Shown here in pieces: positions 29,492 to 55,393 of a DNA stretch of 64,000 nucleotides. Each line of letters starts with the position of its first letter. Position 1 is the stretch's first letter. The stretch comes from Mytilus trossulus (Eukaryota): NCBI RefSeq assembly GCF_036588685.1, contig NC_086374.1:2046001-2110000 (forward strand). Direction: 5' to 3'. The notes beneath the pieces are model-generated. The model made no database searches. It saw nothing but the letters and a program-made list of their open reading frames with translations, and was not told the DNA's origin. A program made the position numbers and the translations under genes.

Positions 29492-31421
29492 CCCCTACAG
29501 TATCAGAATTCACAAGTTTTCAACTCGGAATATTATACGTAATATCTGAATCTACACGTTGAAAACTCTAAATCCAACAGTATATCACTATTCAGAGAAA
29601 GTTTCAGAAGTTCTACAGTATCATAATTCAACAGATGTAAACTCTGATTTCTAGAGTTTTAGAATTCATGCATAATATTTCTGAACTCTGAATTCTATAC
29701 AACTCGAAATTTTACAATGGATATTAATTGTTAAGCAGACTGTAAACGGATCATCATGCATAATACTTGCTCTTTTTGAGTGAAACATTTTGTAATCTCT
29801 CTCTGTAACAAATGGCAACATTCATGTTTTTTTTGTGTATTTTTTTTTATCCCCTTTTGTAGATATTGCATTTAGGAAAAGTCTGTTTACATTGTTAGGT
29901 TCATGTTTATAATCACAGAAAGAAACAGTTCATAGTGTCATTATAAAAGAAACAGTTCAAAGTGGCATTATATAAAAACAGTTCTGTGAAATTCAGTCTG
30001 TGAATCTGATTGTCAGTTGTGGATGTTCGCATCTGTCATTGAAATGATAATTATTAAAAATACAATTTAAAAAAAAATATGATTTTATTGACCTGATTGG
30101 TTGTTGGTTCTTAAATGTTAAATGGTATATATTTCCTAGATAATCAGGACGAGAATAAATTACAATTGATACCAAAATAAACTGGTTTTGATAGGTAGAC
30201 CGGAATGTATGGATAGAAAATGTAGACGGCCACTTGAAAATGACTGTTTGCTGGATGAGGACAGAAGTTTTACCTTTCAATTTTAAACATACGCCCCCCC
30301 CCCCCCCGTCCCCCCCGATAAATATTGTAAGGATATTTTAGCATGCAGAAAGCGTAAAATTCATCCTACATGGCTCATCGTAATAAATATCGACATGCCG
30401 ACCTGACCGATTATTAAATTTGAAATAAATTTTATGAAATGTTTGGATATAAATGTAGATTTGTAGGGTTCACGCTATTTAGACCAGTGTCGGGTATCAT
30501 AATCGGTATTCATTGATCAGGCGAAATGTACATTTTAGTACGCATGACATCTTTTTTTAAATGAACTTCAACAGGTTAGCTCAAACCCTAAAGTTCGAAT
30601 GTCAAAACATCTTAAATGAAAGAGTATAAAAACCAAAGCTGACAAATAAAAACTTTTAAAGTCACGTCAGGGCCAAAGTTAAAGTCTAAAGAAATATTTT
30701 TTCTGAAATAATTGTTTATAATTAATTCTGCATTACAGCAATTTAAACGACTACAAGTATTTGAAAACTTGTTTAAACCTTTTCTAAAATTAATTAATAT
30801 TCTTTAAAATGATATGTTTATAACAGTTTAAGTACACCGATTACACATTTGGTTAATCTGTCATTAGAATGTTATTCATATGTTATTCTTGTATTGAGAT
30901 TAAGAGGTGAATATATATACTCAATAATTAGGTAAACCTTTATAACATTGGCAAGAGAAGGTAGGATTTTATATTTTACAACCACACAAGTAGAAAAAAC
31001 GTGAATCTTTGAATCTTTTTAAAAAAGTTACGTATTGGGATAGCTTGAAGATTGATTTATAAAATTCAGATGATACCCTATATATGTATACATCTTTAAT
31101 ATAACCTCTGTTGCAATGTTTTCTATTCGTGATACGCAATCAACAATGAATTACTCTGATTTATTAGTAAGTCAAAGTTTCACTACTTTCGATTTTATGA
31201 AACCGTAAGTTTTGATACACCATATAAAAAAGAAGATGTGGTATAATTGCCAATGAGACATCTCTCTACAAGAAAACAAAATGACACAGAAATTAACAAC
31301 TGTAGGTCAACATACGGCCTGCAACAATGAGCCAAGCACATAACGCATAGTTATAAAAGCCCCCAGAATGAAAATGTAAAATAATTCAAACGAGAAACTA
31401 ACGGCCTTATTTATACAAAAA

Positions 31422-31888
31422 AACCTAAGGGTTCTGCGGAACCCAGTGTCTCGCCTAGTTTTGCTGTTAATCACACACTCACCAAAAATGATGAAAAATA
31501 CCATCTTTTAATTGCCAGAAGCTTCTGTCCAAGTTTGGTAAAAATCCAGGATAGTTAAAAAATCTTAAAAATGTTTTAAAATTTTGAACTGCAGACTGTA
31601 TGTAATGTTAACTGGAAGAAAAACTAAGTCTATTTATAAGTAAAATACGGGGAAAATGGGAATTTTATTTTTACAAAATTAACTTCTGGATACTATCTTC
31701 TGATCATAAACAAGCTTCTGGCCAAGTTTCGTACAATTCCGGGATAGGTTAAGAAAGATATTAAAATTTAAAAAACTTTAACTACAGAGTGAATATTTGT
31801 TGATGCCGACGACGACGACACCGACGCCGACGGAATGTAGGATCGCTAGGTCTCGCTTATTCGACTAAAGTCGAAGGCATGACAAAAA
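31422..31888 (-). mobile_element. Helentron-type non-autonomous element inserted in another interspersed repeat
   Basis: Terminal hairpins ttcgactaaagtcgaa and gggttctgcggaaccc, (gac)n microsatellite; interrupts the host repeat at an A/T run. Confidence 0.65.
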
Positions 31889-32996
31889 TGAACGAAAAAC
31901 AAATATGTGACACTTAAACAATCGACAACCACTGAATTACAGGCTCCTAACATGTACTACGTATGCCAATACTAAGAAGATGATATTATTGCAAATGAGA
32001 CTACTTAAATAACAAAAACAAAGATATCTCCAATAACTGGTGACCATACGACCTAACAAAAATGAGTCAAACCTTCATGATACAGTAAAAATTAACAGAA
32101 ATACCGAACACCAAAAGATAAATTCTAACGGAAATTCTCTTATCAAATGACAAAACCAAAAGTTCAAACACATCTAACGAATGGAAAACAACTGTCATGT
32201 TCTAAATTTGGTACCTGCATTTACTGATAAAGAAAGAGGCGGATTTAACCTGATTTTATAGCTACTTCAACCTCTCGCTTGTATGGCAGTCGCATATAAT
32301 TCCATCATATTGAAAACAATTTGTTAGCACAACAAACATGAATTGAACGATCTTGTAGTAAAGGCAAGAATAATATACCGCTGTTCAATAGTCAGGAATA
32401 TAATATACCGCTGTTCAATAGTCAGGAATCGACTAAGTAAAGACAAGAGTAATATACCTCTGTTCAAAAGTCAGGAATCGCCTAAGTGAAAACAAATCCC
32501 GGTCACAAACCTAAACCGGAGGAAACACATCAATTATACGGAGTAAAGAACGGAACAACAGAAACACTGTCAAACTGTCAGAAATTGTGATAGAGCAGTC
32601 AACATTGTCTTATAATCTTTATTAATTTTAACACAAACAACTATGTCAGCATAGAAAAACAAAATGGAATATAGACACTCTATAGACAGAGCACATGAGC
32701 AAACATGAAATAAAAGTATACAAAGAATGAATATAGCACACTAACAAAGGCGGAGTGTTTAAAAATACCAAGCCACAGCATAATGATATTACACATATGT
32801 TTCTGATGCGATGGTAGGGAACATTACAAAATATGTTTGATTTCAGTAGTTTATGTCTTCGTTTGTGCTTGTTTCTTCACTCATGAATGTACACATAGTA
32901 TGTTTATGCTGATGGCTGGTGTAGTTTTCTTTTCCTCGGGTAACATTTACCTCCATTTTTAAAACTTCATATATATTTTCATAGATAATCTTCATA

Positions 32997-35191
32997 ATGG
33001 GATGTGCATCATCAGCTGACACTGGGACAGAATTTATACAGTTCGAAAAGAAGAAACCATTAAATAATGACAATGCGGTGGTTATTACTCCCCGGCCGTC
33101 GTCCTTTCAACAAAAAGACCAAGACAACACATCATTAAAAACAAAATCAGAGAATTCGGACCTTTCTCTATCGCCATCTACCGATCAGAGAGAACGAGAA
33201 GATACTATACTGAAGACAGAAACTCCGAATTCTAACCCGTCGCCTATTGACAAGAAAGACCGAGAAGACACAATGCCGAAGTCAGAGAAATCAGATATGT
33301 CTGAACATAATAGACCACCATCCCAATATGTAGATGACAGTACAAATATAAAGCAAGATTATGACCGACCTCAATCATTTCACCAAAGTGATCACGGTAA
33401 AAAATCTCCAGACAAGGAAATATCACAGTCAAGAGAATCTAGTGGACGTACAAAAGATGTGATGATTGTAAATACTACGAATAATGAAGAGAAGGAGGTA
33501 GTATAAATTGCTTATTTTCGAATAGTAATTAACGTGTATAAAGTATATACATACAAGTGAGAGGTTAAGCATTCAATCCACCGTCTTTTACATTTGAAAA
33601 TGCCTGTTACAAGTCAGGAATATGACAATAGTTGTCCTTTCGTTTAATGTGTTTTGGGTCCTCAGCGCTCTTCAACTTTGTACTTGTTTGGCTTTACAAC
33701 TATTTTGATCTGAGCTTCACTGGTGAGTAATGTAGACGAAACACGCGTCTGGCGTATTAAATCATGATCCTGGTACCTTTGCTAACTTTGATTTTGCCAT
33801 TTCATTAGGGACTTTCCGTTTTAAAATTTCCATGGAGTTAGTATTTTTGTGATTTTACTAATTATCAACCTACCGTAAATAGTTATCAAAGGTACCAGGA
33901 TTATAAATTAGTACGCCAGATGCGCGTTTCTTCTACATAAGACTCATCAGTGACGCTCACATCAAAATATTTATAAAGCCAAACAAGTACAAAGTTGGAA
34001 GGGCATTGAGGATACAAAATTCCCAAAAGTAGTGCCAAATACGGCTAAGATAATCTTTGCCTTGGATAAGAAAATCCTTAGTTTTGTAAACAGGAAATTT
34101 ATAAAAATGACCACATTATTGATATTCATGTCAATTCCGAAGTGCTGACTACTGGGCTGGTGATAAAAACTTTAATAAAGCAACCACTTAGAAATCCTCT
34201 GAAACTATTATGATGAATGCTGTTTTATAAATGAGAGAGATAAAAAATGCTCCTTGTAAAATTGATTACAAAAATAAAAATAACACTATATGAATGCGGT
34301 AATAATTTCTTTACTCAAATCTAAAACTTTGAAAAGCCAAGAATGTTAAAGAACATTAACTCGCCAACGGTAAAAAAAATATGAATAGTAAAATCTTACT
34401 TGGTTCAAGTTTGCCTACTGTTAACTTTATAATGATGAATAATAAGGCACGGATATGTGTAACCATGCCTAGCTTACCTTGTTATATCAACTCTTATCTT
34501 TATTTTTCTACAGCGAAAACCTTCATCTTCTTCATCATCTTCCTCATCGTCATCTGAAGATGAAGGTGAATCAGACGATGATAAGAGAGACTCGGATACA
34601 AGACTACTGGAAACTAGGGATTCTGAAACCAGATTTATGGAAACCAACGAACAAAATTCTGTTAAAAACTCGGAAACCAACGACCTTGATGATAACCGAG
34701 GCTCGGAAATGAACGGTTATACTCCAATAGGATCGGAAACCAATGATCATAAGTCACCAGATTCCGAAACGAATGAACGAAAAATGAATGATGACGGTAT
34801 TTCAAAAACAGGAGATGCAGAAAAAGACGAAGCAGACGTCAACCTAAATAATTTTGTGGGAACGGAAGAACTGACAAAACCTGTTGAAATCAACGAAACT
34901 ACAGAAATTATCCAACCAGAAGAAAAATATTCAAATGAAGAAGGTGCAGCAAATGACAATTTAACAAAAACCGAGGAAGTCGAAAGCACACATGCTGTAG
35001 AAGGAGAAAGTGTTGATGATACTGAAACAAAAGCGGAACCAAATGATACAAGACCCACGGAGAAACGCGACAATGAATCGTCTGAAAATGGTCTTATTAG
35101 TTCGAAAGAAGTTGACTCAACTGAAAATAACTCTGAAAAGTCACCACAAGGAATTGACCATACGGAAGAGGAGGACATGCCTTTCACTTAA
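32997..35191 (+). CDS. Uncharacterised acidic, low-complexity protein (392 aa; exons 32997-33497, 34514-35191) with predicted N-myristoyl/S-palmitoyl MGC motif
   Basis: Two long open hydrophilic frames joined in phase 0 by GAG|gtagta ... ttctacag|CGA; Ser run followed by a D/E/T/N-rich tail; splice acceptor just upstream of the ATG. Confidence 0.78.
33655..34165. mobile_element. Two retrozyme-family fragments in inverted orientation within the orphan-gene intron
   Basis: Degenerate hammerheads at 33712-33756 (+) and 33912-33959 (-), with shared flanking family sequence. Confidence 0.7.
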
Positions 35192-36117
35192 ACACGCAAA
35201 TGTATCACATATAAAACCTATAACTGTTTTATACTCTTAAAATATAGAATGATAATCGAAGGAATAATGATACAATTTGTTTCACTGTATAAAATCATCG
35301 GAATTAAAGTACAGTATGCCCACATTTAGTGAATTTGTGGTTTTAATGATAACTTGTTATAAGTATAAAAATATATATCACCTGGCTTCACTTGATGAAC
35401 TATTTGTCGAAGAAAAACACAGAAAATACATATGCAAATAAACAGCTATGTAAAAAAACAAAATATTCCTCTTTCTTTTAAATATGTAACAAACAATTAT
35501 GATACAGCGACATTATGGTAGATATGGAGTCAAAATTAAGAACAACAAAAACAAATTATATTTTGGAAAACACGTAGTTTATATGATGATGTTTAAAAAA
35601 ATATACAACGAAAGATTTGAGTCTCGAAGCTTTTCTGCAAGCTTTTAGTTGTGCAACATTGTGTATAGACTTTTAACGTAAAGTAGGTAACGATAGCTCT
35701 TATGAAAATAATAAAACGTGGTTTATCGTATTCAATATCTTGAATTATCAAATTAGAAAAATGTGCTGTCTATTTCTTTATATATCCAAGTTATCTGCTC
35801 CTATATAACAAAGATTTCAAATTTGGATTCGAAGATAAAAAAAAAATATGTGCCAATTGTAATTTTGAAACAGATTTTATGTCATAGAAATATCAAATAT
35901 GAATTACATTTATTTCCTTTTCAAAATATTTAAAGATTTCTTAGTGTTTTTTTAAAAGGTATTATATTTGTAACCGGTTTATTGATAACAGTTTGATGAT
36001 TATACTGTTTGTATCTTTTTTATTCTTTTTCCACATTCATTCAACACTATCTTTATATTTCAGTATTTATTCCAAGACTTGTTTATCTATTTAACAAATA
36101 TATTCTTTCATCTCCTG

Positions 36118-39100
36118 TCATACGTGTGCTACTCTGGAATAATAAAAAAAGCTACTGTTTATATTTGTCCATCTTTCACTTAGTGTATCCGTGCTATGCT
36201 TATGCTTTTGAGGTTTATTAATTTCACTTTGTATTGGGGAGCATGAAACTTTGAAACACTGTATTTACTACTCCGTTGACCGTTAAGTTTATATATTTAC
36301 ATGGAGCATGTAAAAAACTAGGGGAAAGATATCTGAACGCTTAGTACCATTTTTTTCATTTACGAAGATAGTTGCGAATGATAAGTTGTCTTTTACTATT
36401 GCAAAATACATATTTAGGGTACTGCGATCATGAGACTTATTACTGGATTTGAACTAACATGAACAACACGAGAGGTGCCTCGCGTGGTGTAAGATTTGCA
36501 TACACTGTGGTACACACAGTTGTTGGCGAGTTTCGTGTCACGCAGTATTTAGTTTTCTATGTTGTGTTTTGTACACGGCTATTTTGTTTTATTGTGGAAG
36601 GTATTTCTATAGTGGCATTTTTTTGGTTTTTTTTCCATGACGTATTCAGATTGTTTTTGACATGCGTCTTTGTTATCTTTCGCCTCTCTTACTTACTAAC
36701 AATTTATTTATTCATTGGTGTCTTTGTAATGCACATTGTATTGTTTATAATGTACAGTAAATACATCTTATGACTTTTATCCTAACTTACGTTATTTCAA
36801 TTGCACATTCTGAATAAATTGCCAAAGAAAAATCGTTTTCGTCCTCTTCACTATTACAGTGAATAAGTAGTAGATATGTTCCCGCTTTTACTGTGTAACA
36901 TGTGTCTACAGAAGTTCCGAATTGGAAAGGGCCATCACCACCCTCACTGTCTCTCAGAGCATTGCCATAGTTGTCATTCAGCCAGTCGTAATTTGCCGGG
37001 AAACCCATACCTCGATGAGCCTGTAAATGTATGTACGTATCTCTTTTTAAAGACGGAAGACATTTTTCACCTTTTAAATCTTAAACACAGTTTTCTGATA
37101 CTTTTCTTTGTGCAATATACTTGACATTGCTGATGTCAACTTATATAAAAGCTTTCTATATGATATGATAATTTCCTCTATACTGCATCTAATTTTTAAT
37201 GTGTTGATCGCATGTAGTGTTTTCCATGCTTTATGTATATTTGGCAATCCAAATGTCCGATATCATTTTTCCTAAATAATAAAACATATATCTTTACTTC
37301 AAGCAATTCAATAGATTCACTTACTTCAAATAATTTGATACCAAGTGCAAATCCATCTTCTCTTTCTGGTTGCATAACTTCAACTCTAAATGTTTGTTCT
37401 GAAATAGTTTGAGATTAACATTAATGATTAACGAAAACGTGTTCATCATTTGGTCTTTATCAATAAAATATGTCATCGCTTCCCATAATTTCATTGACAT
37501 TTTATTTAGGAAACAAAGCCCTGGTAAATCGAAACACGCGTCTAGCAGACTACATTAAAGGGATGTTATCTCCTTGCTTAACTATATTCTTGCGTTTCTA
37601 ATTATAATCAAACTGTTTCACTTGTTATGTATTCATGCTTGATACTTGAAGCAGTTTGTTGGACTATTTGTTAAGTATACATACATATGTACAGGTTTTT
37701 CTTAATTCTAAGTAATTGTCGTTTAGCGCTATAAAACCAGGTTCAATCCACTATTTTCTACATTTGAAAATGCCTGTACCAAGTAAGGAATATGACAGTT
37801 GTTATCCATTCGTTTGATGTGTTTTATTCTTTGAATTTGCCATTTCCGTTTTGAATTTTTCTCGTAGTTCAGTAATTTTGTGATTTTACTTTTTTCGCTC
37901 ACTATCTGTTCTTACCGTCATGAACTTTCAGTTGATACTGGGGGTTATTTGCTACCATTCGCCCACTATTTCATTAATATCTGTTCTTACCGTCATGAAC
38001 TTTCAGTTGATACTGGGGATTATTTGAAAACTCGTCACTTGCTATGGTTCCACCAGCATTTACACCTCTTTTAAATGCACCAAAAGAACATTTGGTACAT
38101 TCTGAAAAGTAAATTTCTTAAATGAATTTCGTATGAAACAACAAGAATACACTTTAAGCAAACATAGAAAAGTTGTCTAATGATTATTCGCTGATTTTGA
38201 ATATATTGGCTATAAGCATTTCATTGTTGTTTTGTTTCAAAGTCTTTGTTCACCTGTTTAATTTTTTTCATTTCGGCCTGTATACAATGTTGCCTGTATG
38301 GCAAAGTTTCAACACAGAATTTGTTTATTTTGTTTGTATGAATCCATTAAAAAGACTTCAAAACTTAACGTACTACTCGCCTTTTAAAATACTATATTGA
38401 TTTGTGCTTTGTATGCAAAGGCAGAAACCAACTATTGTTTGATGGTAACGTTTAAACACTTATAATAATACGTTTTATAAATGATTTTTAAAAAATCAAC
38501 CGTTTTTTTTACAACTGTCAAGCGACAAGTGAGAGGCTCAGCTAGCTATAAACAAGGTTTAATCCATCAGTCTACAAAAGAAAATGCATAAACAAAGTCA
38601 GGAATATGACAGTTGTTGTCCATTCGTTTGATATGTGTGAGCTTTTGATTTTGCCCTTTCAAGAGGGACTTTTCGTTTTGAACTTTCCTCGGAGTTCAGT
38701 ATTTTTGTGATTTTACTTTTAATTATACTGTCTGTCCGAATTATAAAAGAGAGGCGAAATATACCAAAGGGATCAGAAGGACCAGAGGTTGAAAATAAAC
38801 TGACAACGCGATGGATAAATACACAATTTCTTTCATTTAATCTTTACATAGTTTATTCAGTAAATAACTTAAATGGATGAGATATCAGGCTACATGCTTT
38901 CTTTAACGTGAATTTAGTTTTTGTGAGGAGAAAGTTACATGTACCTCACATAATGTCAGTATATGTGAGTCTAATGATCACTATAACATGAAACATGAAA
39001 ACTTAATTAAACGCCTATTTCTACATATACAATATGTATTCAATGGCGTTGTACATAAATGACATATAAAATACAAAAATACTAAACAAAAATACAATAT

Positions 39101-42100
39101 GTATGTACAATACCAAAAATTGAAAATTTATACTGTGATACACAAGAAAAAAGTCAGAAAAGTTCAAAATAATTTTGGAAATACAATGCTTTCAACCGAC
39201 ATTTAAAAATATCCAAAGATTCAGAGTTTCTTACATTTGTACCTAGTTCATTCTACAATTTTGGCCCAATAGTACTAAAACTTCTATCTGAAAAAGTTTT
39301 CTTTTTGTTATATGGGACTGCATAACAACCAATAGATGACTCTGACGACCTTAATGAACGTTTCGACACTTGAGGATTTAACAAATTGATCAAATATGAC
39401 GGTGCATTACCTACATGACAGTTGTACATATATGTTAAGATTTTAAATGTACTTCTGGCTTTGATCGGAAGCCAGTGTAAGTCAAACAGTGCCTGCTTGG
39501 CACTGCTTGGCCTGCTTATAACGTTATTATGTTATGCGTGAATACAAAAGTTAGGTCGTGTGAGTGCAAAACTACTATTAGTATATTTTAGCATAGCATT
39601 TGTGAGTAAAATGTTATTTTACCATGATTGTAGTACTTGCGAGTACAAAACTTACTAAAACTTGAATTTTCAGCAGGTTTGTCGCCATTTCTTCCCCTTC
39701 CTGTCATCACAGTAATGTTGTCTACTTCACTGAAATTTAATGATTGCTTTAATAAATAGAATGACAGATATGATATGAAACAAAGAAAAATGGTAAGATT
39801 CCTAATAAGACAACTATGCAAAGCGAGTAGAAATGATGAATCTTTTAAAGAACTATTGTCACCATTAACATAACAGGTAAACTGATAAAAAGTGAAAACT
39901 ATACTTAATGAATTTCACAGGTTCGAATCGCTTTTCTTGATTAACTGTAATTAAGAACACTTAAATTCAGAACTATGACAGCCACTGATATGGTTTTTTT
40001 TAAAAGAACCGAAATAGTTGAATAGCTATATGACCGAAAAGAACATAAAGTAATAAACAAATAATTTGTGAACAGTTTGTTAGAAATCATATCAGTACAG
40101 AAGCCATGACTACTAAATTGATGATATTGTCAAGGACAGATAGTCCACCAGCAGCGGTATCGACCCAGTGCTTTCAAAAAAATTAAACGCAAAGAAATTT
40201 CATATGATTAAAAATATAACATGACAGATAAGATTTAAATATCATTTAAATTCAATGATAGTTCTAATTAGTTATCAACGGTACCAGCATTTTAATTTAA
40301 TACGCCAGACGCGCGTTTCGTCTACATAAGACTCATCAGTGACGCTTAGTAGTTATAAAGCACAGGCACTTGTCTCAGAAAAAAAATTACCTCTATACCT
40401 TAATGTTATATTAAGGTATAGAGGTAATTTTTTTTCTGAGACAAGTGCCTGTGTTATAAAGCCAAATAAGTACGAAGTTGAAGAGGATTGAGGACTAACC
40501 AATAACATTACAGATAGGGTATCAATTTCAATTTCATTTTGAAAAAAAACCGGATTAGCACAAGCAAAACACTTTTTAATAAGGTAGACACATTTTTATC
40601 TATTTAACATACATTCAAAACGATGGAACGAAGATAGCGTTGATAAAACAACTTACAAGCCAAAACTTTAAAGTGTGTCAATTTAAATATGACGAAATCT
40701 GGTCTAGTTATTGAAAGGGAGGGGACGGGGTGGTGTTAACATAAGACTGGTTTGTTGAACTCATAAAGTCTTTACCTACTAATCATAGCAATAGTTATTT
40801 TTCTTTGTTTGGTCATATTTTCTGTCAACGAAATCGCGTGTTTGTGGTCGGCTAGACATGAGAAAAGCAGATATGAAACCCAGAGTAAAGACAGTACTAA
40901 CAGGAGAAGATCTCAGTGTATAGAAAATTGTCTTGTACAGTGTTGTGATGAGAAAAGCAACACATATATCTTATTGTACTATTGTACAATAGTCAATAAC
41001 TAGGGAAGAGCCACATGTCTTCATTATTTTGCAAGCGTCACATACAGGAAAAGAGCCATACAGATACTTTATAGTATGGACAGCATGCCCATGTGAAGAA
41101 CTCATGAATACAAGATACATTATAATACACACGTTTCTGACAGGAGAAAAGCCACACATATACTTTATCATACAAACATCACCGACAGGAGGAGAAGAGC
41201 CACAAAGATACGTTATAGTATGGACAGCATTTTAATTAGACATGTCACACATTTACAGTATTATTCAAACCTCATTGACAGAACAGTCACAAAAATACTT
41301 TATTGTATCAACTGCATTGTCATGAAAAGAGACACACATATACTAGTACCTTATTACAAAAACATGTACGCCAAGAGAAAAGCTGCAAAGATAACTTTTT
41401 GAATAGAAAGCAATGACATGAGTCAGTCCAAAAAGAGGGACGAAAGATACCAAAGGGACAGTCAAACTCATAAATCGAAAATAAACTGAAAAGGCCAAAA
41501 ATGAAAAAAGACATGCAGACACACAATAGTACACATGACACAGAAAGTTACTTTATTGCAAGGGGATCATTACCAGGAAAACAGTATGTAAGATGCCACA
41601 CTGTATAGACAGCGATTGCTGATATTGATCAAGGAAGACATCTTATTGTACAAAGAAGATAGGTGAATATATATATAGTTTTAAAAATTGTAACTAAGAG
41701 CAGGCATAATAACTTTTTTTGCTTTGATTATTATATTCTAATTTGAAACCTACTGAGGATTTGACACAGGAGCAGCGGAAAAAAATCTGATGAGGAACTC
41801 TTTTTCATATCCAGCTTCCAATGTCGCGGGTATAGCAATATATGAACCTGGTTCAACAAGGAATCTGTATGTATTTTGTACATTGCCCATGTATATGTTA
41901 GACTTGTCACCTAACAGTTCCAGGGAAACACAATGGTCGTTTTTGCCGAGAAGCTAAAATATAGAAAAAACTTCCGAGGTCTTATACATTATTGGTATAC
42001 ATTTACCTTTACATAAACTTTTACTGAGAAGTTACCAAATAGCTTCACTAGATATATAATCACACAGTCATGTCCAATCTGATAATAGCCATTTATGAGA

Positions 42101-45100
42101 GAATTTAGTGCTATGATAGTCAACTGCCATCAAATTATTGAAAAAAATAAATAAAGAAAGAGCATTTGTTATGGACTTCTATTTTTTTGGCTGATGCATT
42201 TAAAGTTTAGTACATGTTATGTTATGTTCTTTTCGTCTTATCACACTGGGTAAGTAAATAAGTACACAATTATACTCTCCCAATCCCTTTTCAAGATAAT
42301 CACCTACCAAATTTTACTATGAGCAACACGATGGGTTTCATATGTGGAGCAGGATCTGCTTTCCCTTCCGGAGCTCCTGCCATTACCCCCAGTGGCGGGT
42401 TCGTGTAGTTACGTCTTTAGTTTACTATGTTGTGTGTTTGTGCCTATAATGTTTCTGCTTTTATGTTTTTATTTTTCTTATTAAGCCATGACTTTGTAAG
42501 TTTATTTTCGATCTATGAGTTTGGCTGTCCCTCTGGTATATTTCGCCCCTCTCTTTTCTAGCGTAGTTTACATTATGATCTACACTTAACACTTTATATA
42601 AATTGATGACATACAAAGACACATACCTTGAATAGATCGCATCTGACTTCAGTAATGTCATTCCTACTCTCCAATGTTCTTTGTACTATCTGAACAACAA
42701 GGGCAACTTTACCTTCATCGTCCATTGCTACAGATTCAAATACATATACAAATAGTTATCAAAAGTACCAGGATTATAATTTAGTACGCAGGACGCGCGT
42801 TTTGTCTACATAAGACTCATCAATGACGCTCATATCTAAATAGCTATAAAGCCAAACAAGTACAAAATTGAAAAGCATTGAGGGTCCAAAATTCCAAATA
42901 AATTGTGCTAAATACGGCTAAGGTAATATATGCATGAGACAAGAAAAATCATTAGTTTTTCGAAAAAATCTAGTTTCATGTCAACATCGAAGCCTGACTA
43001 CGGGACTGGTGATACCATCGGGGACGACACGTCCACCAGCAGTGGCATCGACCCAGTGGTGTAAATAGTAATCAAAATTACCAGGATTATAATTTAGAAC
43101 GCCAGACGCGCGTTTCGTCTACATAAGACTCATCAGAACTTAACACTAAAAATTATATTGCAGCTTTTTTGCTGAACACAGAATAAAGAAATAATATATG
43201 TAGATATTTTTACGACTTCAGGATGCAGCCAACAATCTGTTTTACTGAATATGTTCATTTTGTTAATTTATATAAAAGATATATTTTTGAAAAACGATGG
43301 CTTTTCTTCCTCAGGAATAGATTACCATAGCTGTATTTTGCAACAGTTTAGGAATTTTAGTCCTTAATGCTCTTCAACTTCGTTCTTTATTTGGCTTTTT
43401 CTAACTTTGTAGGATTCGAGCGTCACTAATGAGTTTTTTTATAGACGAAACGCGCGTCTGGCGTAAATACACAATTTCATCCTTGTATCTATGATGAGTG
43501 TATTTCAATCGTCTTCACATTTCTTTTTCTAGCATCATTATTTTAAGGCGTATAGGTAAACACTGCTGCAGTGGTTGAAATGTTTAAAACGAAAACATAC
43601 CTTTATCGCCGAGTGTAACACTGTAACATGGATTCTTTGTTCGTTGTTCGAATCCACCATTCTTTCCATCACGCCAGTTTCCATATATACATGTAACGTA
43701 GTCTGAAAAATAAAAGAAGTTGCCAATTACAAATATTTTTATTACAGTCACTGATATCCAATTTTGAACAGCGGTATACTTCTGTCGCCTTTATTTACTA
43801 AATACTTTAAAAAAACACTTTTGAACCTTATACAGGGGTGTGAAGTATGGCTGTATCGACCAAAACATTACTTAATATATGACAATACACAAATTCAGAG
43901 TTGCTTTTAAAGCTTTTTGACGGAACAGAATTCAAAGGAACGAAAAACAAACGATTTTTTCACCAAGCCATATGATTAGTGTAGCGTCTGCAAACCCTTT
44001 TTTAATCAGAATAAATTTTATCTACACCCCCTTTTATTTTATCATACTTTATAAAGTATTTGTAATTATAATGAAGGTGTATGTAATGAAATCTTGACTA
44101 CTTTCAAAAGTCCCATGCCATATTGATATCAATTTCCTTTGATTGTTGTGCGCTTAGAACCGTTGTTTTATCAAGTCCCATTTTTAGTGCACTAGTATTC
44201 GTTTCACTTATTTTATGAGTGTACATTGTAAATTTTTGAATTTGCAAATTCTCTGTGTAAGGGTCATTTATTTTATGCTGACTAGTGATTTAGTGTACAA
44301 GAATAGTTATACTTGCGTTTTCTTACTTAACATATCAGGAAATCCATCTCTGTCGAAATCCGGTGTTAGATTACAAATGGTACAATCATCAAAGTATCGC
44401 AGAAAATCATTTATATCCATATAAAACTCTCCGTCGTCTTTTGAAGGGTGTGGGACACAGTCTGATGGGGCAGTTTTCCATTTAGGACTCCTAACAAAAT
44501 TGTTATATATTCAGTTAGATTAATACAGTCCCTCTATTCTTAAGATCGTATAGTATTTCGCACAGTTTAATAGAATTTTATACATTGTATCACATTTCAC
44601 CATCAAAATCAACAGAGATACATTCAACAACGCTTAAAAACAAAATTAAATTAATTATTATTAAATAGTGTCTGGCTGGCTGTATCTGTTTTGTAAGAGT
44701 TCAATTTGTGAAAGAATTTATTTTTATCGGTAGCCTAGAATTATGGTTCCTTCTTTACGCGTTGTAAAGGTTTTAGTGCACAATACAATTCTTTGAAAGA
44801 TTCGCAACACCAAACATCTAGAGGCCACTCATCTAGACAAACATGTGAGCTTGAATTCTCGAGATTCCCGAATGATATTATGACTTCAATATGTACGAAT
44901 ATATGGGGAGAAAACGAGCGAATGAGGTGCGTCCCTTGAAAACATGAACAAGTATTTTGTATAATCAATCGAAAGGAATCTAGAGACCATCATATTCGAA
45001 CTGTCCTTTATAATAAATGCGTTGTTTATGTCACCAGATAGAAAATTAAATACCTATCACTCCATGGGCCGTTCCATTCACCGTTGCCCCAGGGATTTCT

Positions 45101-48100
45101 TAATCTTAATAACTTGGCTTCACCTACCTACAAATTAAAAAAAAAGTTACCATTTAATTTTTTTTATCATTAATATTTTTTTTATAGTTTCATTGATTGT
45201 TTTTATTGTTTAATCTTGAAAATATCAGAGACCTTTGAACAAAAATCACTTTAATGTAAAAATAAAACAAAATTTGGAAATATTTTATCAGCTAATTAAT
45301 TTTACTTATAAATTTAGTTTGTATGTACAAAGTATCCACGATTCATGTTTACTAGTAGACCTTTTCAACATCTCTCGACACCTACAGTTGAGAGCGACTA
45401 CGACAGGTAAAATGTGAAGGGTCGTCTCAAAAATAAAAAAAATGGGATCATTATTGATTTTATTGCTTTCAATCATTGACAATGATAAAACTTTCCTACA
45501 GAGTCTGACAATCATGTTTTATTGTAGTTGATATTTGATTGAACAATGATTATGTCGGTTGACAAGGGCAGCACATGTCTGTTAGTTTTGGCCTTGGAAG
45601 CCTTCATTATGTAGTCAATACTTTGTATCATTTCAATTCACCAATTTGGTGTTCCACTTGAATTCTGTATTCACCAATCACTACTTAAATGTTGTAACAA
45701 TGAAACGAGGGGTCAATTATATTTTTTTCCAAAATTCATCAAGGAAAAATTTAAACTCGAACAAGATATCTTGAAGCAGAGAAGATAAAAAAAAAACCCA
45801 AAAAATGTGATAGTTTCCTTCGACCTAAAAAAAAAACCGGCAAATATTTGGCGAAGGACTCACATAATCACAAAAGTGAAGAGAAAATGGGTTAGGATCC
45901 AGAATGATTGGAATATTTGTTTAATCAATTCAACATGAAATGTCGTGCAAATACATACGAAATAAAAATATTATATGACAGAGACATATGTATGGTGGAC
46001 GGATGCGGACGTTTCCCCTTTTCGTGTTTTCGGGGAAATCCAGAAATCGAGAAAGCGAAATTGAGAAATTGAATAATCGGAAAATCGAGAAATTAAGAAA
46101 TTGGGAAATCGAGAAATAGAGAAAGCAAAAACGAAAAATCGAGATTTCATTTCGCGTTTTTGTGTTTTCTCTTTCTTGTTTTTGGCGTTTTTGCTTTCTT
46201 GATTTCTCGATTTCCCGATCTTATCTATTTCCGAATTTTTCGATTTCCCGATTTCTCGATTTCTCGATTTTGCTTACTCGATTTCTCGAATTCCCATTTT
46301 GCGTTTGCAAAATGAAAGGAGAAGTCACGAAAACGCTAAAAGGCGAAATAAATGGCCGCATCCGGCCACCATACATATATTTATTTATTTATTTGGTTGA
46401 TATATATTCTTAAACTATATAGTCAAAACAGTATAAAAGCGCCTATCCAATATGTTACGTAATGATAATCATGATGTTTTTTGTCTTTGAGACGACCCAT
46501 CCATTTTACCTGTAAACTGTAGGTGTCATTAGTCGGTGTCGAGAGATATTGAAAAGGTCTAATAGCTATTTAAAGATTTTTTTAAAATTGTAAAACCACA
46601 CTTCTTGAAATGCTGTATACTTAGTATTTGAGAACACCCCCAGTTTTTGGTGGTGTTCGTGTTCTTATTCTTTAGTTTTCTATGTTATGTTTATTTTACC
46701 ATTGTTTGTCTGCTTGTATTCTTTTTTGATAAGTCATTGCGTCATTTCTGACTCATAAATTTGAATGTCTCTCTGGTATCTTTCGCCTCATTTAAAGCAA
46801 ATAATTTAGATTGTACTTCTTAATATAGCAGTCTTATTGAAAAAAAACCAGGCTTCTTCGTTTTGCCTGTAAATGAAAATAAACTTACAATAAAAGCTCC
46901 GTTTATGGAATAAGCGTGACCTCCTACCAATCCACGTTTACCGTCGTTTTTATCCTAAAAAAATAAGAAAAATACCCAACCCCGAGTTAAATTTAATACA
47001 TTTGCAAAATCAAAAGCTGTCATATTCCTGACTTGGTGCAGGATTTTTTTAAAGTTGAAAATGTTGAATTGAACCTGGTATTATAGCTAGCTAAACCTCT
47101 CACTTATATCACGATATATGATCATATTTGTTAAAAAAAAATATATATATCAACTGAACTTACACTTAGTGAATGTGTCGGTGATTGATTGTTTTTCTCG
47201 TCAACTGTTTAGCTCACCTGGCCCAAAAAGCTAAGTGAGCTTTCTTTGGCGTCCTTCGTCGGTCGTTGTCGTCCGTCGTCGTCGTCGTCCTTAAATGAAC
47301 TTTTACAACAATCCTCTCTTTTTGAAACTACTGGGACAAATTTGAACAAACTTGTCAACAATCATCATTGGGCTATCTAGTTTAAAAATGTGTCCGATGA
47401 CACTTCCTGCCAATCAACATGACCGCCATGCCTAAATATATACATATAATACATCAATGTATCATGAAAGGCGCCTTTTATCAGCTATAGGCCACGTCCA
47501 TGTTCATTTAACATAGTAAGACAACCTAATCAATATCAATTTCAACAATCCTTCCAGGAAAAATCTTACCCTATATATTAATTTGTGTGTGTCATAGAGT
47601 TTTTTTTATCATTGGGATGATACTCATATCTTCCATTATTTACAGGTTAGACCTTTTGAAATCGATTAAGATCTTTCTTTGATGTAATCAAGGATTATGA
47701 ATTTAAAAAAGAACTTAATTGTTTAACATTGTCTTATCGGGGCTTTTTATAGCTGACTATGCGGTATGGGCTTTGCTCATTGTTGAAGGCCGTACGGTGA
47801 CCTATAGTTGTTAATGTTTGTGTCATTTTGGTCTTTTGTGGATAGTTGTCTCATTAGCAATCATACCACATCTTCTTTTTTATATTTAATAATAAACACA
47901 TCACAGTCAAATGTTTTAAAACTAATTCTTTTCTGAGATATTCTATGTTTAATTTCCATACCGGGCAATTACATCCAACCATAGTAGTAGGACACTGAAA
48001 GGCATTATGTAACCTTTGGAACAATCGTTTTGGGGAAATCTTTTCCTCCGTGAAGTCGATCCTCTCCGCAACTCCTCCTGTTAAGTTCAAGTAGGAATCC

Positions 48101-51100
48101 GCTGTTAATCCCTCGGTTATTTCAACGTAAGATCCATATAATCTGTTGATATTTGCATGTTCAATACTATAGTAATTCACAAATAGTTTTTTTTTTTTTT
48201 ATATTTGCATGTTTAATACTATAGTATTCACAAATAGTTTATTTTTTATATTTGCATGTTCAATACTATAGTAATTCACAATTATTTTTTTATATTTGCA
48301 TGTTCAATATTATATAAATTCACAAAAAGCTTTTTAAACAGAAAACTAACGATAATATATTTGATAGAGCGCACAAAATATTATCATTTTTTGTATTTAA
48401 ATGATAATGTATGTGTACTCCGTCAATCAGATGGAAATGACAAGATAAAAATACAAAGACTGTTACACCAAACAGTACCTGCCTGATACACCTGGGGAAA
48501 TATGAATAAAAGGAAATGTTGAAAAGTTGCGCCAAATACCGCTAAGGTAATGTATTCCTGGAATAATGAAACCGTAATAAAATGATATAATAAATAATAT
48601 AATATGAAAATAAATATGAAAACTGTTCCTTTGAGTTTTTTTTTTCTTACGTAAGTTGAGAAAAATGCTAAAACTTACTTTGCAAACGCCTTTTCCAGAA
48701 GAGCAACCCACATCTCATTTGGATCGGTTGCTGAATGCGCCCCAGCTATATTTGTTTCCTGCACAATTGGTAGGAAGTCGTCTATATAGGTATCATTCCA
48801 AACACCAAATCTCCAGAACCGACAGTGAAAAATCCCGTCATAACCATCCGAACCTATTTTGTAAGCATCTCTCGGTATTACCTGTAATTGAAAAGGAGAA
48901 ATTTGTTTCATGGATACCCTCTTGTTGTAAAAATGATTTAAGATTATTAGAATTGCTATGGTGATTCTTTATTGGTGTAGACGATAACGATTGAGCGTAA
49001 ACATCATATCATATGTTTTGATTCAAAAGAGGGATGAAAGATACCAAAGGGACACGGACAGTCAAACTAATAAATCGAAAATAAACTGATAACTAGACGC
49101 TCTCAAGAGCCTGTGTCGCTCACCTTGGTTTATGTGCATATTAAACAATGGACACAGATAAATTCATACCAAAATTGTGTTTTGATGATGGTGATGTGTT
49201 TGTAGATCTTACTTGACTGAACATTCTTGTTGCTACAATTATCTCTATTTATAATGAACTTGGCCCAGTAATTGCAGTGGAAAATATTTTCAAAAATTCT
49301 ACCAAAATTTATGAAAAATGTTAAAAATTGACTATAAAGGGCAATAACTCCTAAGGGGTCAACTGACCATATTGGTGGTGTTGACTTATTTGTAAATCTC
49401 ACTTTGCTGAACATTATTGCTCTTTACAGTTTATCTCTATCTATAATAATATTCAAGATAATAACCAAAAACAACAAAATTTCCTAAAAACTACCAATTC
49501 AGGGGCAGCAATCCAACAACGAGGATTCCAATTCATCTCAAAATTTCAGGGCAGATAGATTTTGATCTGATTAACAATTTTACTTGGTGTCAGATTTGCT
49601 TTAAATGCTTTGGTTTTTGAGTTATAAGCCAAAAACTACATTTTACCGCTATGTTCAATTTTTAGCCGTGGCGGCCATTTTGGTTGGTTGACCTGGTCAC
49701 GTCACACATTTTTTAAATTAAATACCCAAATGATGATTGTGGCCAAGTTTGGTTTAATTTGGCCACGTAGTTTAAGAGAAGATTTTTGTAAAAGATTACT
49801 AAGATTTACGAAAAATTGTTAAAAATTGACTATAAAGGGCAATAACTCCTAAAGGGGTCATCTGACCATTTCAGTCATTTGACTTATTTGTTAATCTAAC
49901 TTTGCTGAACATTATTGCTGTTTACAGTTTATCTCTATCTATAATAATATTCAAGATAATAACCAAAAACAGCAAAATTTCCTTAAAATTACAAATTCAG
50001 GGACAGCAACCCAACAACGGGTTGTCCGATTCATCTGATAATTTGAGGGCAGATGGATCTTGCCCTGATGAACAATTTTACCCCCATGTCAGAATGGCTC
50101 TAAATGCTTTGGTTTTTGAGTAATAAGCCAAAAACTACATTTTACCCCTAAGTTCTATTTTGAGCCGTGGCGGCCGTCTTGGTTGGTTGACCGGGTCATT
50201 GGACACATTTTTAAACAAGATACCCCAATGATGATTGTTGCCAAGTTTGGTTAAAGGCCTAGTAGTTTCAGAGGAGAAGATGTTTGTAAAAGATTACTAA
50301 GGTTTACGAAAAATGTTTAAAAATTGACTATAAAGGGCAATAACTCCTAAAGGGGTCAACTGACCATTTCGGTCATGTTTACTTTCTTGTAAATCTTACT
50401 TTGCTGAACATTATTGCTGTTTACAGTTTATTTCTATCCATAATTATATTCAAGATAATAACCAAAAACAGCAAAATTTCCTTAAAATTACCAACTCAGG
50501 GGCAGCAACCCAACAACGGGCTGTCCGATTCATCTGAAAATTTCAGGGCAGATAGAGCTTGACCTGATGAACAATTCGACCCTGTCAGATTTGCCCTTGA
50601 TGCTTTGATTTTTGAGTTATAAGCCGAAAACTGCATTTTACCCCTATGTTCTATTTTTAGCCGTGGTGGCCATCTTGGTTGGTTGACCTGGTCATTGGAC
50701 ATATTATTTAAACTAGATACCCGAATGATGATTGTGTCTAAGTTTGGTTAAATTTGGCTCAGTAGTTTCAGAGGAGAAGAATTTTGGATAAATTAACAAC
50801 GACGGACGACGACGGACGACGGACAACGACGGTGGACGCCGGACGCAAAGTGATGGGAAAAGCTCACTTGGCCCTTTGGGTCAGGTGAGCTCAAAATGAA
50901 ATAGACAAACAGACAAACAATAGCGCACATGACACAACAAAGAAAACTAAAGAAAAGAAACACGAACCCCACCAAAAAATAGGGGTGACCTCAGGTGCTC
51001 CGGAAGGGTAAGCAGCTCCTGATCCATATGTGGCATCTGTTGTGTTGCTCATGTTATAACAAATCCGGTAAAAAGTCTAATTCGGTAGGTGATATTCATA

Positions 51101-54100
51101 AAAGGGAAGGGTATTGTAGTTACGACGTAAGGAACATATCCGATATCATTTGTGAAACGGTTATTCCATAACGGTCAACCAACTCGTGATGGCGTCCATA
51201 AAATTTACGAAGGGATGATTTCAATTTCACCATTAGGAACTCTTGATTTAATATCTTCCTTGTGAGTAGCAACCCTCTATCAAGGAAATCATGTATACAA
51301 TCCTTTAATGGTGTATAATTTTCTTGCTTATCAACGTAACTTGAAGAAAGTATAAGCATACTCATTCTATAACGTTCATCTTGAGAATAAAACAACTAAA
51401 ATTATAACCTCAAAAGTTGTTTGGACGCCATCATGAACGGTTTGATTCTTATCGTTTTCATTTCCTAGACATATTAACGCACACATGCCATGTATTTGGT
51501 AAATGTCCATTTGTCAACATCCAGACTAAGCAAAGAGTATTTAATCTGACTGTATTACTATTTGTGCATGAATTCAAGAATAAAATGACACATTTGGTCT
51601 CTCACCGTTCAGATTTCTAACTGGGTTCTAACTAAAATTAATATAATCGACTAAAAATAAGTATATTCACCATGAATAAATAATACCAGTATCGATTCGC
51701 TGGTTGTTATTTGGTACATTCGGGACCTATATAAATCAGGTGTTTTCTTGAGTTATAAATGTTGTTAAAATACTAATTGCTTTAAATTGTACGTCAAAAT
51801 TGCACACAAAGGACAACTTAAACCGTATACAGTCAAAATGTTTTATTCTATAGTGATTCAGTTTATAACACAATATTGACTGCTGTACCACTAATTTTGA
51901 GATGGTTACCAATGATATGTGATTGTTTTGTTCACAAATCGTTGTCAATATAACGGAATATGATGAAAATGATATACAAGTGAGAGGTTTAGCTAGCTAT
52001 AAAACCAGGTTAAATCCATCATTTTATACATAAGAAAATAACTGTAAAAAATAACGGCAACAGTAGTATACTGCTGTTCGAAACTCATAAATCGATTGAG
52101 AAAAAAACAAATCCGGGTTACAAACTACAACTGAGGGAAATCCATCAAATATAAGAGAACAACGACACAACAGAAACACAACATTAAAATGAAACACACA
52201 GAGAAACGAAATATAAAATACCAATAACCATTTTCCTGACTTGGTACAGGACATTATAGGATAAAAATTGAACCAGGTTTTGTGGCACCCCAAACCTCCC
52301 GTTATTATGGCAATGTTAAATATAACATTACAATGACAACATCATATGATAGGACTATAATACAAATAAATGGGATAACATATAGAACAGCGAAACACAC
52401 GAATGATAGCTAACAAAACGTGTCAGGTTTAAAATTTAATTTTACTCAGGTTTCGTTCACACAATACTAGCCAGTGACGCTCTGATAAAAAAAAATTGCG
52501 AAAGCCAAGTCAGGAATAGGATAGTTGTTATCCATTCGTTAGATATGCTTAAGCTTTTGAGTTTGCCATTTGATTAGGGAGTTTCCGTTTTGAATTTTCA
52601 TCGCAGGTCAGTATTTTTGTGATTTTACTTTTTGTTAAATATATATTCGTGATTTATGAACTGACGTATAACAGACAACATTTTTCATTCAAGGCGTACT
52701 AAAAAGTTACGATATTGAAACTTTAGATAATGCAGGTCGATGATCAACAAACAGCGATACCGCACCGATAGTAGTGGAAATGTAATTTATAATACCAATT
52801 TCTGTACATTCACTCAATACGGTTTCTTTTTTAAATCTACTTTGGTACACTTAAGAACTTTTTATATTTCTCTATTAACGTAGTCGGGTTCGATTTTTTT
52901 TTGTAGTTGAAATCTTTCGGTTACGATTATGATTTCTTACCCTTCGTAGCAATTTTGGTTTGTCTGCAATGTTGGCTACCATAGCCATAAACCAACAAGT
53001 GCCTACTTCACCTTGTCCAATGTCAAATCTAGTTGCTCCATCTGAAAATAGAACAGGGTTTTCTGCGACATCCTGTAAAAATAAGGTTTCAATTTATTTT
53101 ACTTTTTGACACTTTCAAGTTCTGTTCTGATGCAGATCTTTTGATTAAGTCGCAATTTCTAATGATATTTTTTACAAAGCCGAAATGGTGGCTTTCTATT
53201 TTGTGTTGGAGTTTCTCACTGTTCGCCTAGAGCACTCAATATCGATTAACTTAAAGGCTTCTTCAAATTTTGAAGGCCATACGGTGACCTAAAACTGTTA
53301 ATTTCTGTTTTAGTTTGTCTCTTGTAGAGAGTTGTGTCAGTGTCAATCATACCACATCTTCTTTTTTGTAAAAAATTTACTGTGTTGTGTTACATTAACT
53401 AAGGGACTTTCCGTTTAGAATTGACCTAAAAAGTGAAATCACAAAAATACTGAACTCCGAGTAAAATTCAAAACAGAAAGTTTCTAATCAAATGACACAA
53501 TTAAAAGCTCAGATACATCAAACGAATGGACAATTCATTATTGTAATTGAATCCATGTATTTTCACATTTTAATTACTTAAGTTCAGCAACAAAACGGTT
53601 GTGGTGCGTTACTATATATACATATGTTGGTATAACTATGTCAAAGATAGTAATGGAATATGTTTATAATAGATACGAACCATAGGTCTTTTCCATTCCA
53701 AATCTGATCTATTAGGAAAAGCAACATCTACGGTGAATTCGTAATCAGTATACAGATCTCCGTCAGGATGAGGAGGGGCATGTGAGGGAAAATCTGTAGA
53801 CGATGTTCGAAAATCTAAGAACAATTCATGTGTTCCAATGTCTGTTGGTATATACTTGGCTACCGTGAAGTCTAGCCGTCGAGGCAACATTTTATTTTCA
53901 GTATTGTTAATGTCAATCCTTCTTTTGGCATCACTGCTTTTAACTCCATTTGTGACATTTTTATCGCCACTATTGTGTTTGGCGGCCACGATTGGCACAG
54001 ATGCTGATTTATTCTTAAAGAAATGTACATTTAGTTAGTACAATAAAATAGAGTACATCTTTTTGACCTTACGTTTTAAACAGTTTTTAGATATAAAGGA

Positions 54101-55393
54101 AGAAATAGGGTTTATGTCAGTGAATAATATCGTCTTTAATGTGGCGTCAGTACAGATAGAATGAATCATTATCAAAACTGCAAAAAGTAAAGTTTAACAT
54201 GTCTCTTGAATGATCTAATATTGAAATTGTGGATTATAGAGTTTTAAAAAAATATGAAGATAATCTGTTTTACTCGTGAGATCAATATCTGGCCAAAAAA
54301 AGGAGTTATTCTACTCGGATTTTCCTTATCTGCTCTCTCAGAGAGTTGTAATCTACTCCAAGACATGATAACCTCACCGGAAGCATTCTGCTTTTGCTTA
54401 TTTGTTTTATTTGTTTTTATTTTTGTTCTTCTTCTTGGTACTATAATGTTCAACTACGTTAAGTTAACTACTATACAAGCAACTATCAAGACTGTAAAGA
54501 AAAAATGTTCACAAGGCTCTAAATGTTAAATGCTTTGGGAATGATTTTAAACTTTTAATCCATGCTTCAAATGGTTAACAAATACTATTTTCGTACAACC
54601 AACACTCAATATCAAATCCTAATAACTATTCGGGGACAAGCATGGGGTGGATATATTATTTACTTTTTTTGCACTGGGACATTACATTTAATTTGTGTAA
54701 CAACAGCTCAACAGACTATAAATAAAAGGACAATATAGCAGATAAAAACGTTATATGTCTCAATCCCAACTGTTAAAACACAGATTGTAATTTATAATGC
54801 ACGCACTAAAACTTTTAGAAAAAGAATAGATTGAATATTTTGCAAATCTTATTCCATATATTATTGTATCATCATTCGTGATATCACACACAACACAGAC
54901 TTTCATTTCTGTTTCTTAAAACATAAGGCGGTCAAGCAAAAAGCTAAGCGAAACGAGCAAAACTTCAACAACTGAAAAACCTAATCGTATTTTATTATTA
55001 AAAAAAACCAAAAGTATGAATCACTGACAATTTATTTTGAATATATTTTATACAATGTAGTTGATGTAAACTTGTTTATAATAATATGCTTCTATTTTGT
55101 ATCGTAATATTATATGAAAGAAATTATAGCTAAAAAAGAAAGAGCTAACGTTAATACATAGAGGAACAACAACTAAAATGAATAAAGAAAAAGCAGATAC
55201 TTTGACCTTTTTTATTTACCTCATTTAGTGTTGGTAATTTGTTTAGTAAAGGTTGTTGTTCTTGTTGTGTGTTCTGTTTGGAATGCGTTTGTGGATGGCT
55301 ACATGTGTCTAGTTCACTCCTAAAATATTGCTGTCCATGATGTTCAAATGATGCATGCTGAGTTCCACTATCAGAAGAGGCAGCACAACCCAT
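36118..55393 (-). CDS. Atypical calpain (about 744 aa): MGC N-terminus, CysPc, two CBSW/C2L domains. Exons 55393-55220, 54013-53681, 53072-52941, 48881-48679, 48142-47962, 46954-46889, 45127-45054, 44490-44327, 43702-43601, 42727-42627, 41953-41754, 39729-39656, 38101-37991, 37398-37325, 37020-36791, 36133-36118
   Basis: Sixteen GT-AG exons with consistent phases sum to 2235 nt; motifs [15 protein letters not shown] (Cys), [13 protein letters not shown] (His), RNPWG (Asn), DDGEFYM. Confidence 0.9.
38988..39516 (-). mobile_element. 5'-truncated L2-clade LINE with tataac target-site duplication
   Basis: Encodes LHWLPIKAR...APSYL...RSLRSS...DRSFS; (catgttt) tail; tataac at 38982-38987 and 39517-39522; empty site in the paralog at 63065-63070. 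Confidence 0.85.
40301..40347 (-). ncRNA. Minimal type I hammerhead ribozyme with canonical core, in a retrozyme-like repeat
   Basis: Minus RNA GCGUCA-CUGAUGA-GUCU UAUGU AGAC-GAAAC GCGC GUC/UGGCGU: all conserved core bases, 6-bp stem I, 4-bp stem II, short palindromic stem III. Confidence 0.85.
40361..40453. mobile_element. 93-bp perfect fold-back MITE with 8-bp TSD
   Basis: 44-bp perfect arms, 5-nt loop; ttataaag at 40353-40360 and 40454-40461. Confidence 0.92.
40855..41400 (+). repeat. Degenerate minisatellite of about 45-50 bp
   Basis: ggagaa(a/g)agccaca...ttat motif recurs at about 40860, 40903, 40950, 41004, 41047, 41093, 41143 and 41190. Confidence 0.65.
42751..43136 (-). mobile_element. 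Retrozyme-like unit: about 313-bp monomer bounded by two tandem hammerhead motifs (42785-42832 degenerate; 43098-43136 core intact)
   Basis: Direct repeat aatagt(t/a)atcaaaa(g/t)taccaggattataatttag at 42751 and 43064, each followed by the reverse complement of the hammerhead. Confidence 0.78.
43300..43500 (+). mobile_element. Retrozyme-family fragment, plus strand, hammerhead core mutated (CUAAUGA)
   Basis: gagcgtcactaatgag...agacgaaacgcgcgtctggcgta at 43418-43465. Confidence 0.7.
45356..46561. mobile_element. Non-autonomous DNA transposon with about 75-bp imperfect TIRs starting TAGACC (Academ-like termini)
   Basis: tagaccttttcaacatctctcgacacc...gggtcgtctcaaa is mirrored at 46488-46561; flanks ctag/atag. 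Confidence 0.65.
45991..46373. mobile_element. MITE with TATGG termini and near 6-bp TSD (IS3EU-like), nested in the element above
   Basis: tatggtggacggatgcgg / ccgcatccggccaccata; flanks catatg and catata; internal inverted arrays of aaatcgaga. Confidence 0.7.
48148..48330 (+). repeat. About 50-bp tandem repeat (4 copies) abutting a calpain splice acceptor
   Basis: atatttgcatgttcaatactatagtaattcacaa repeated directly upstream (minus sense) of the acceptor at 48143-48144. Confidence 0.8.
49091..50896 (-). mobile_element. Full-length Helentron-type element with three internal 498-bp tandem repeats
   Basis: Same termini as 22336-23039; gactataaagggcaataactcct at 49330, 49828 and 50326. Confidence 0.8.
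50950..51300 (-). mobile_element. Penelope-like retroelement 3' fragment
   Basis: [17 protein letters not shown]...[19 protein letters not shown] resembles the C-terminal region of PLE RTs (recognised from memory, not searched). Confidence 0.65.

Follow-up and report, generated by a model that had tools for sequence, protein, structure and literature searches.

The closest described system to the locus reported here is the non-LTR retrozyme of Mytilus galloprovincialis (Cervera and de la Pena 2020, PMC7229834), for which about 5,000 type I hammerheads of two families are reported in repeats of 350-390 bp, with Mg353 as a construct. Retrozyme RNA is described there as abundant circles in tissues, and a cloned mussel repeat cuts during transcription at approximately 0.1/min (37 C, 6 mM MgCl2). 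The repeat family analysed below shares with it the genus, the type I hammerhead and the division into two families; the unit is 354 bp here compared to 350-390 bp (Mg353), and both have low GC and thousands of copies. Unlike the M. galloprovincialis retrozyme, the copy that we find in a calpain intron is a solo fragment split by a MITE, from which release of a unit-length circle is impossible.

Dispersed monomer derivatives of this kind are also known as intronic solo retrozymes in Xenopus (Li, Clavereau, and Pollet 2026, 10.64898/2026.07.22.740005). These are vertebrate families, and the parts of that paper drawn on here do not test the orientation of copies within introns. Of the Xenopus copies, 42-44% are intronic, which is yet a significant deficit in introns, and 1 of 9 retrozyme dimers tested cleaved. 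The intron deficit suggests that such insertions carry some cost.

Two further systems are relevant. The min-HHRs of Penelope elements (Cervera and de la Pena 2014, PMC4209133) have in common with the calpain motif a type I topology, palindromic positions around stem III and, probably, their mobilisation. However, in the described min-HHR families helix III is missing, helix II is longer, at 6-8 bp, and helix I is shorter, whereas the calpain motif has stems of 6, 4, and 2 bp and no extra base before stem II. The HDV-like ribozyme of CPEB3 and the amniote intronic hammerheads share with our locus a sense motif, here predicted to be self-cleaving, within an intron of a protein-coding gene. Those ribozymes are isolated and conserved, while the calpain motif is a high-copy mobile piece with no sense counterpart in paralogous introns. 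The CPEB3 ribozyme has a half-life of 2-3 min against 9.9 kb of intron, and slow intronic ribozymes were without effect on splicing (Fong 2009, as cited in PMC10274809). We found no paper that joins Mytilus, hammerhead and calpain, and no test of orientation bias in the portions of the literature consulted.

A canonical type I hammerhead in a calpain intron

The DNA analysed is a 64,000-nt stretch of the Mytilus trossulus contig NC_086374.1, referred to below as the window. The features that matter first are the following:

36790..55393, minus strand: calpain gene with 15 coding exons, encoding a Peptidase_C2 and two Calpain_III domains
39730..41753, minus strand: calpain intron 11, 2,024 nt, GT..AG, with the frame rejoined
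40302..40345, minus strand: type I hammerhead motif of 44 nt, identical to the motif of tandem arrays, with a predicted cut at 40308/40307

On the minus strand, the 5' arm of stem I (GCGUCA) begins at 40345 and CUGAUGA at 40339, followed by a stem II of 4 bp (GUCU/AGAC, loop UAUGU), GAAA, and a palindromic stem III (ACGCGCGU) of 2 bp closed by GCGC. The cleavage triplet GUC ends at 40308, and the 3' arm of stem I (UGGCGU) occupies 40307-40302. The core requirements CUGANGA, GAAA and an NUH triplet are all present, and 12/12 pairs form (6, 4 and 2 bp in stems I, II and III). Every element proposed in the earlier note, as well as the predicted 40308/40307 cut, lies at its place on the minus strand. 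That note had called the motif a minimal type I hammerhead: type I holds, while "minimal" has to be dropped, as the 6/4/2-bp stem architecture is the canonical metazoan form and distinct from the minimal hammerhead (PMC4209133). Judged on its sequence, the motif is a canonical type I hammerhead for which self-cleavage is predicted.

Generic searches and folding are less informative. The Rfam hammerhead models, which had been suggested as a check, give no match at the gathering score in the window. A scan with a loose hammerhead pattern returns 8 matches at 6 places compared to 2.1 expected, which alone is weak evidence. The predicted minimum-energy fold of the 40345-40302 region is not a hammerhead, the isolated 61-nt fold has a z of -0.78, and at 37 C a fold constrained to the hammerhead is 5-10 kcal/mol less stable than the ensemble, in the window copy and in an array copy alike. 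For window and array copies, folding also predicts a rival hairpin that covers the core. Since the array copy scores alike and the published repeat cuts, we do not count these energies as a sign of inactivity.

The exon map, running from 55393 down to 36790, was obtained by tblastn with P0001. Calpain domain matches were found in 5 of the 10 ORF pieces scanned, and the closest homologues are Mytilus calpains (94% identity over one exon). The hammerhead is, as had been claimed, sense-oriented inside a calpain intron: the gene runs on the minus strand, and intron 11 carries the motif on the pre-mRNA strand, with the cut site 578 nt before the acceptor. In run X19, tentatively taken to be RNA, the match of two contigs breaks off at the donor site (41754), which hints weakly at spliced mRNA. 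The joint of exons 11 and 12 is absent among the 15 joints listed, with 1,130 further joints lying outside these 15. The high X19 depth on the hammerhead bin stems from the repeat family as a whole and is left out of account.

Several other elements lie near the motif. A short minus-strand frame in intron 12 (39253-39531) has no Pfam match; it reads like the end of what we take to be a LINE-type reverse transcriptase. A Penelope min-HHR would be expected within pseudo-LTRs on either side of an RT-endonuclease frame; in the ORF list of 30000-50000, no long ORF adjoins the hammerhead motif. A very high-copy short repeat occurs at 41431-41505 (intron 11) and 42440-42560 (intron 10); its depth at 41431-41505 is in the millions, and neither place aligns to the retrozyme unit. 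On the plus strand, a gene piece at 32985-35191 that starts with MGCASSAD resembles a calpain N-terminus and converges on the calpain gene; the acidic low-complexity frames after this start have no Pfam match.

Two tandem calpain paralogues lie upstream on the minus strand (window 61032-64000, L022-L024, and L091). In both, the retrozyme pieces in intron 11 are antisense only, and no sense hammerhead is present there. One paralogue has two antisense copies with an exact core in intron 9. Across the three calpain genes, this gives 1 sense and 2 antisense exact cores, too few for a bias test. The retrozyme pieces in paralogue introns are all antisense except for a decayed sense piece at L091:7061-7127.

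The motif belongs to a mussel retrozyme family

The exact 44-nt motif occurs 9,492 times in the 1.30-Gb genome (4,804 plus, 4,688 minus), and the reversed control does not occur at all. Tandem arrays with a period of 354-355 bp make up most of the first 100 motif places listed, and the natural array unit has 354 nt with 38% GC. There is, in addition, a sister family with 3,122 exact hammerhead copies, some of them in arrays with a period of about 350, whose units are about 69% alike those of the window family:

L028:3466-3509 and L111-L116: sister retrozyme family

In the sister family, 4 of the 12 pairs differ on both sides, yet all three stems are kept. The covariation test covers 5 hand-picked rows and is in effect one family-level contrast; 60/60 cells pair, compared to at most 48% in slid controls. 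The 9,492 exact matches versus none for the reversed motif, together with the paired changes in the sister family, show that the motif is not due to chance. The compensatory changes show the family to be under selection for the hammerhead fold.

The published mussel retrozyme is marked by tandem repeats of ~350-390 bp with a type I hammerhead and GC under 45%, and by thousands of copies in two related ribozyme families, all of which we find here. The repeat family is likely the published mussel non-LTR retrozyme, matched by unit length, GC, copies and families. The link to metazoan non-LTR retrozymes drawn in the earlier note was right, and copy number, arrays and the two families make it stronger than first thought. 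The calpain-intron motif is already known in kind, being one copy of a described mobile family.

A truncated solo copy split by a MITE

The window copy is solo and 5'-truncated, with a length of about 137 nt, and covers only positions 262-398 of the array unit (40494-40265). Its parts, and a second fragment nearby, are the following:

40454..40494, minus strand: truncated 5' part of the retrozyme, corresponding to unit positions of about 262-302 and including the second target duplicate (40454-40461)
40361..40453, no strand: palindromic MITE of 93 bp, inserted in the retrozyme piece 15 nt before stem I
40346..40360, minus strand: retrozyme stretch from the MITE to stem I, including the 8-bp target duplicate (40353-40360); 7-nt deletion versus the array copy
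40265..40301, minus strand: retrozyme 3' tail, 5 differences in 36 nt versus the array copy
40087..40170, minus strand: second retrozyme piece, further decayed (74% identity) and without a hammerhead, from unit positions 47-130

The MITE is self-complementary at 90 of its 93 positions, has the ends CACAGGCAC...GTGCCTGTG, and is flanked by an 8-bp duplication (TTATAAAG). Duplications of 8 bp are present at 7 of the 8 family loci inspected (window locus included), and the 18-nt end has 1,381 exact occurrences in the genome, so that the family comprises hundreds of copies. Some pairs of MITE ends on C1 are about 850 bp apart, which suggests longer members. The CACAG ends and 8-bp duplications recall what is presumably the P-element superfamily, a label for which a follow-up search gave no confirmation.

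All 44 nt of the core are unchanged, while its surroundings have drifted, with the 5 differences in the tail and, in the 5' flank, 3 substitutions in addition to the 7-nt deletion. Two of the 5 tail differences belong to a variant common to 15 genomic copies. A contig of run X2, which carries another organism label, begins in unique intron sequence at 39844 and reaches 40318. Because this contig joins the unique intron to 40318, the insertion with its cut site is common to another organism label and so is not brand new. Beyond 40453, the X2 and X4 contigs that extend this far have 35 and 33 unaligned letters, respectively, which suggests that the MITE is likely absent at the window site in these runs. 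The match of 40267-40141 to intron 11 of the third paralogue (67%) is too weak to date the second fragment, and a long target duplication around the retrozyme piece is suggestive only, as 20 of 904 random intron pairs score as high. The window copy is not an active element, since there is no tandem pair of intact hammerheads to yield a circle.

Other retrozyme copies

Eight copies in the window clearly bear a hammerhead, and a ninth is very decayed; among these, only 40345-40302 is identical to the array motif. The claim that it is the only fully canonical copy of about nine is correct in that it is the sole exact copy; under a lenient rule, the copy at 5466-5423 also passes via two G-U pairs (2/9). 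In a 600-kb sample, there are 31 copies (about one per 19 kb), 5 of them canonical and 2 exact; an overlapping 790-kb sample has 23 ungapped copies, 4 canonical and 3 exact. None of the comparably drifted copies has an exact core (0/15 in the 600 kb and 0/7 in the 790 kb).

The window element ends about 43 nt past the cut site, as do most dispersed copies: in the 790-kb sample (genome pieces L025-L084 and L092-L110), the 3' end lies 34-48 nt past the cut site in 23 of 38 dispersed copies, while the 5' ends vary. The shared 3' end resembles the 30-40 bp tail of Penelope-like insertions and implies that the insertion template was uncut or circular at the ribozyme site.

Intron 9 of the calpain gene has further copies:

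42750..43142, minus strand: sense retrozyme unit, bounded by two defective hammerheads
43142-43099, minus strand: defective hammerhead that has lost the 5' arm of stem I, core intact
42829-42786, minus strand: defective hammerhead with C3U, G12A and two stem I mismatches
43248..43495, plus strand: inverted, antisense retrozyme copy with the core change G5A

The inverted copy is complementary to its sense neighbours within the pre-mRNA, and the head-to-head pair (42750-43495) is predicted to form a long imperfect duplex of about -180 kcal/mol. If it forms, this duplex could possibly be a substrate for editing or small-RNA production. A similar inverted retrozyme pair is present at 33652-34165.

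Predicted cutting and its effect on calpain mRNA

The copy in intron 11 is very probably a truncated, MITE-split solo retrozyme with an intact core that would cut too slowly to affect the mRNA. We computed the fraction of transcripts cut before the acceptor is made, assuming a polymerase speed of 0.5-4 kb/min and taking 0.1/min, a rate at 37 C and 6 mM MgCl2, as a ceiling. This fraction is 1.4-10.9% at 0.1/min and 0.1-1.1% at 0.01/min. The earlier note had proposed co-transcriptional cutting of the calpain pre-mRNA. Some cutting is possible, but the kinetics predict a small effect, which leaves the functional inference mostly unsupported. Against a small host effect stand the exact core amid drifted flanks, the shared insertion, and the calculation that 18-63% would be cut by the end of splicing, given an intron lifetime of 2-10 min and the full 0.1/min.

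The same observations bear on the alternative that cutting as a monomer lowers or tunes calpain mRNA, as for CPEB3, with the core kept by selection. The intact core beside a diverged tail and 5' flank would fit such a role, as would the sense orientation, the presence of the insertion under at least one other organism label, the CPEB3 precedent (PMC10274809) and the cutting of a cloned mussel repeat at about 0.1/min (PMC7229834). However, the CPEB3 half-life of 2-3 min is set against 9.9 kb, while for the mussel copy 0.58 kb would stand against a half-life of at least about 7 min. With the calpain copy chosen as the best among the window's 8-9, an exact core is unsurprising, and 2 of the 5 tail differences come from a common variant. 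A domesticated ribozyme is expected to be single-copy and kept at the same intron position, but here the copy number is high and intron 11 of either paralogue is without a sense hammerhead. The competing hairpin predicted over the core also speaks against tuning, though array copies share it. Taken together, we consider a tuning role unlikely.

Could cutting instead occur in trans, with array-derived retrozyme RNA pairing via stem III with sense intronic copies and cutting host pre-mRNAs? Retrozyme RNA levels are reported to be high in mussel tissues (PMC7229834), and the window substrate strand can form 6/6 stem I pairs with an array-type enzyme strand. On the other hand, most of this RNA is circular, the authors infer that the ribozyme is blocked in vivo, and some circles are predicted to hide it (PMC7229834); the array unit modelled here as a circle likewise shows no hammerhead in its predicted fold. 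This makes cutting in trans very unlikely. We regard as similarly far-fetched the broader proposal that intact sense intronic retrozymes trim mussel pre-mRNAs genome-wide, in cis or in trans, with the calpain core kept as a tuner.

In a double hammerhead, the 5' stem I arm and core of one copy act on the triplet and 3' arm of the other. The earlier note had suggested that the intron 11 copy dimerises with the upstream sense copies at 42785 and 43098 in order to cut at 40308/40307, but neither partner can form a site there: the 43142 copy as enzyme makes just 1/6 stem I pairs with the 40308 site, and the 42829 copy has a dead core owing to C3U and G12A, so no hybrid cuts 40308/40307. Nor is it established for the mussel family that hammerheads cleave best as dimers, the reported cutting at ~0.1/min being within a single repeat (PMC7229834). 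A double hammerhead with the intron 9 sense copies is the least credible alternative, even though a palindromic stem III suits hammerhead dimers and the 40345 enzyme strand makes 6/6 stem I pairs with the 43142 substrate strand, because the only complete hybrid has this copy cutting at 43105/43104 and none can cut at 40308, the partners are separated from it by 2.5-2.8 kb and two exons and lie in what is perhaps an already spliced intron, and the inverted copy at 43248-43495 is predicted to pair with them more tightly (-64 to -66 versus -24 to -25 kcal/mol for the dimers).

Discussion

The preferred reading, a slow solo retrozyme with little effect on its host gene, would come about as follows. 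In read-through transcripts of the arrays, cleavage at each hammerhead would release units of about 354 nt, and these would be circularised, as shown for M. galloprovincialis (PMC7229834). The circles would then be reinserted by a Penelope-like reverse transcriptase, as inferred in the same paper. One such insertion would have landed in calpain intron 11 in the sense orientation and later received the MITE; it also has a deletion beside stem I. From then on, the copy would be transcribed merely as a passenger of the calpain pre-mRNA. A small fraction of nascent introns may be cut by the monomer, at up to about 0.1/min, but in most transcripts exon 12 would be made before any cut, with the retrozyme piece then removed along with the intron. 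The slow cutting, the small host effect and the mode of insertion are what we infer from the features described above.

By itself, the calpain-intron copy matters little, being a single member of a mobile family that is already described. Its wider interest comes from the more than 12,000 exact, structurally intact hammerheads of two families in this mussel genome, which make the genome suited to testing for a purge of sense intronic ribozymes; such an orientation bias would point to cutting of host RNA in vivo. Were it true that a copy like the one in calpain intron 11 tunes the mRNA of its host gene, invertebrates would have an example of a domesticated retrozyme.
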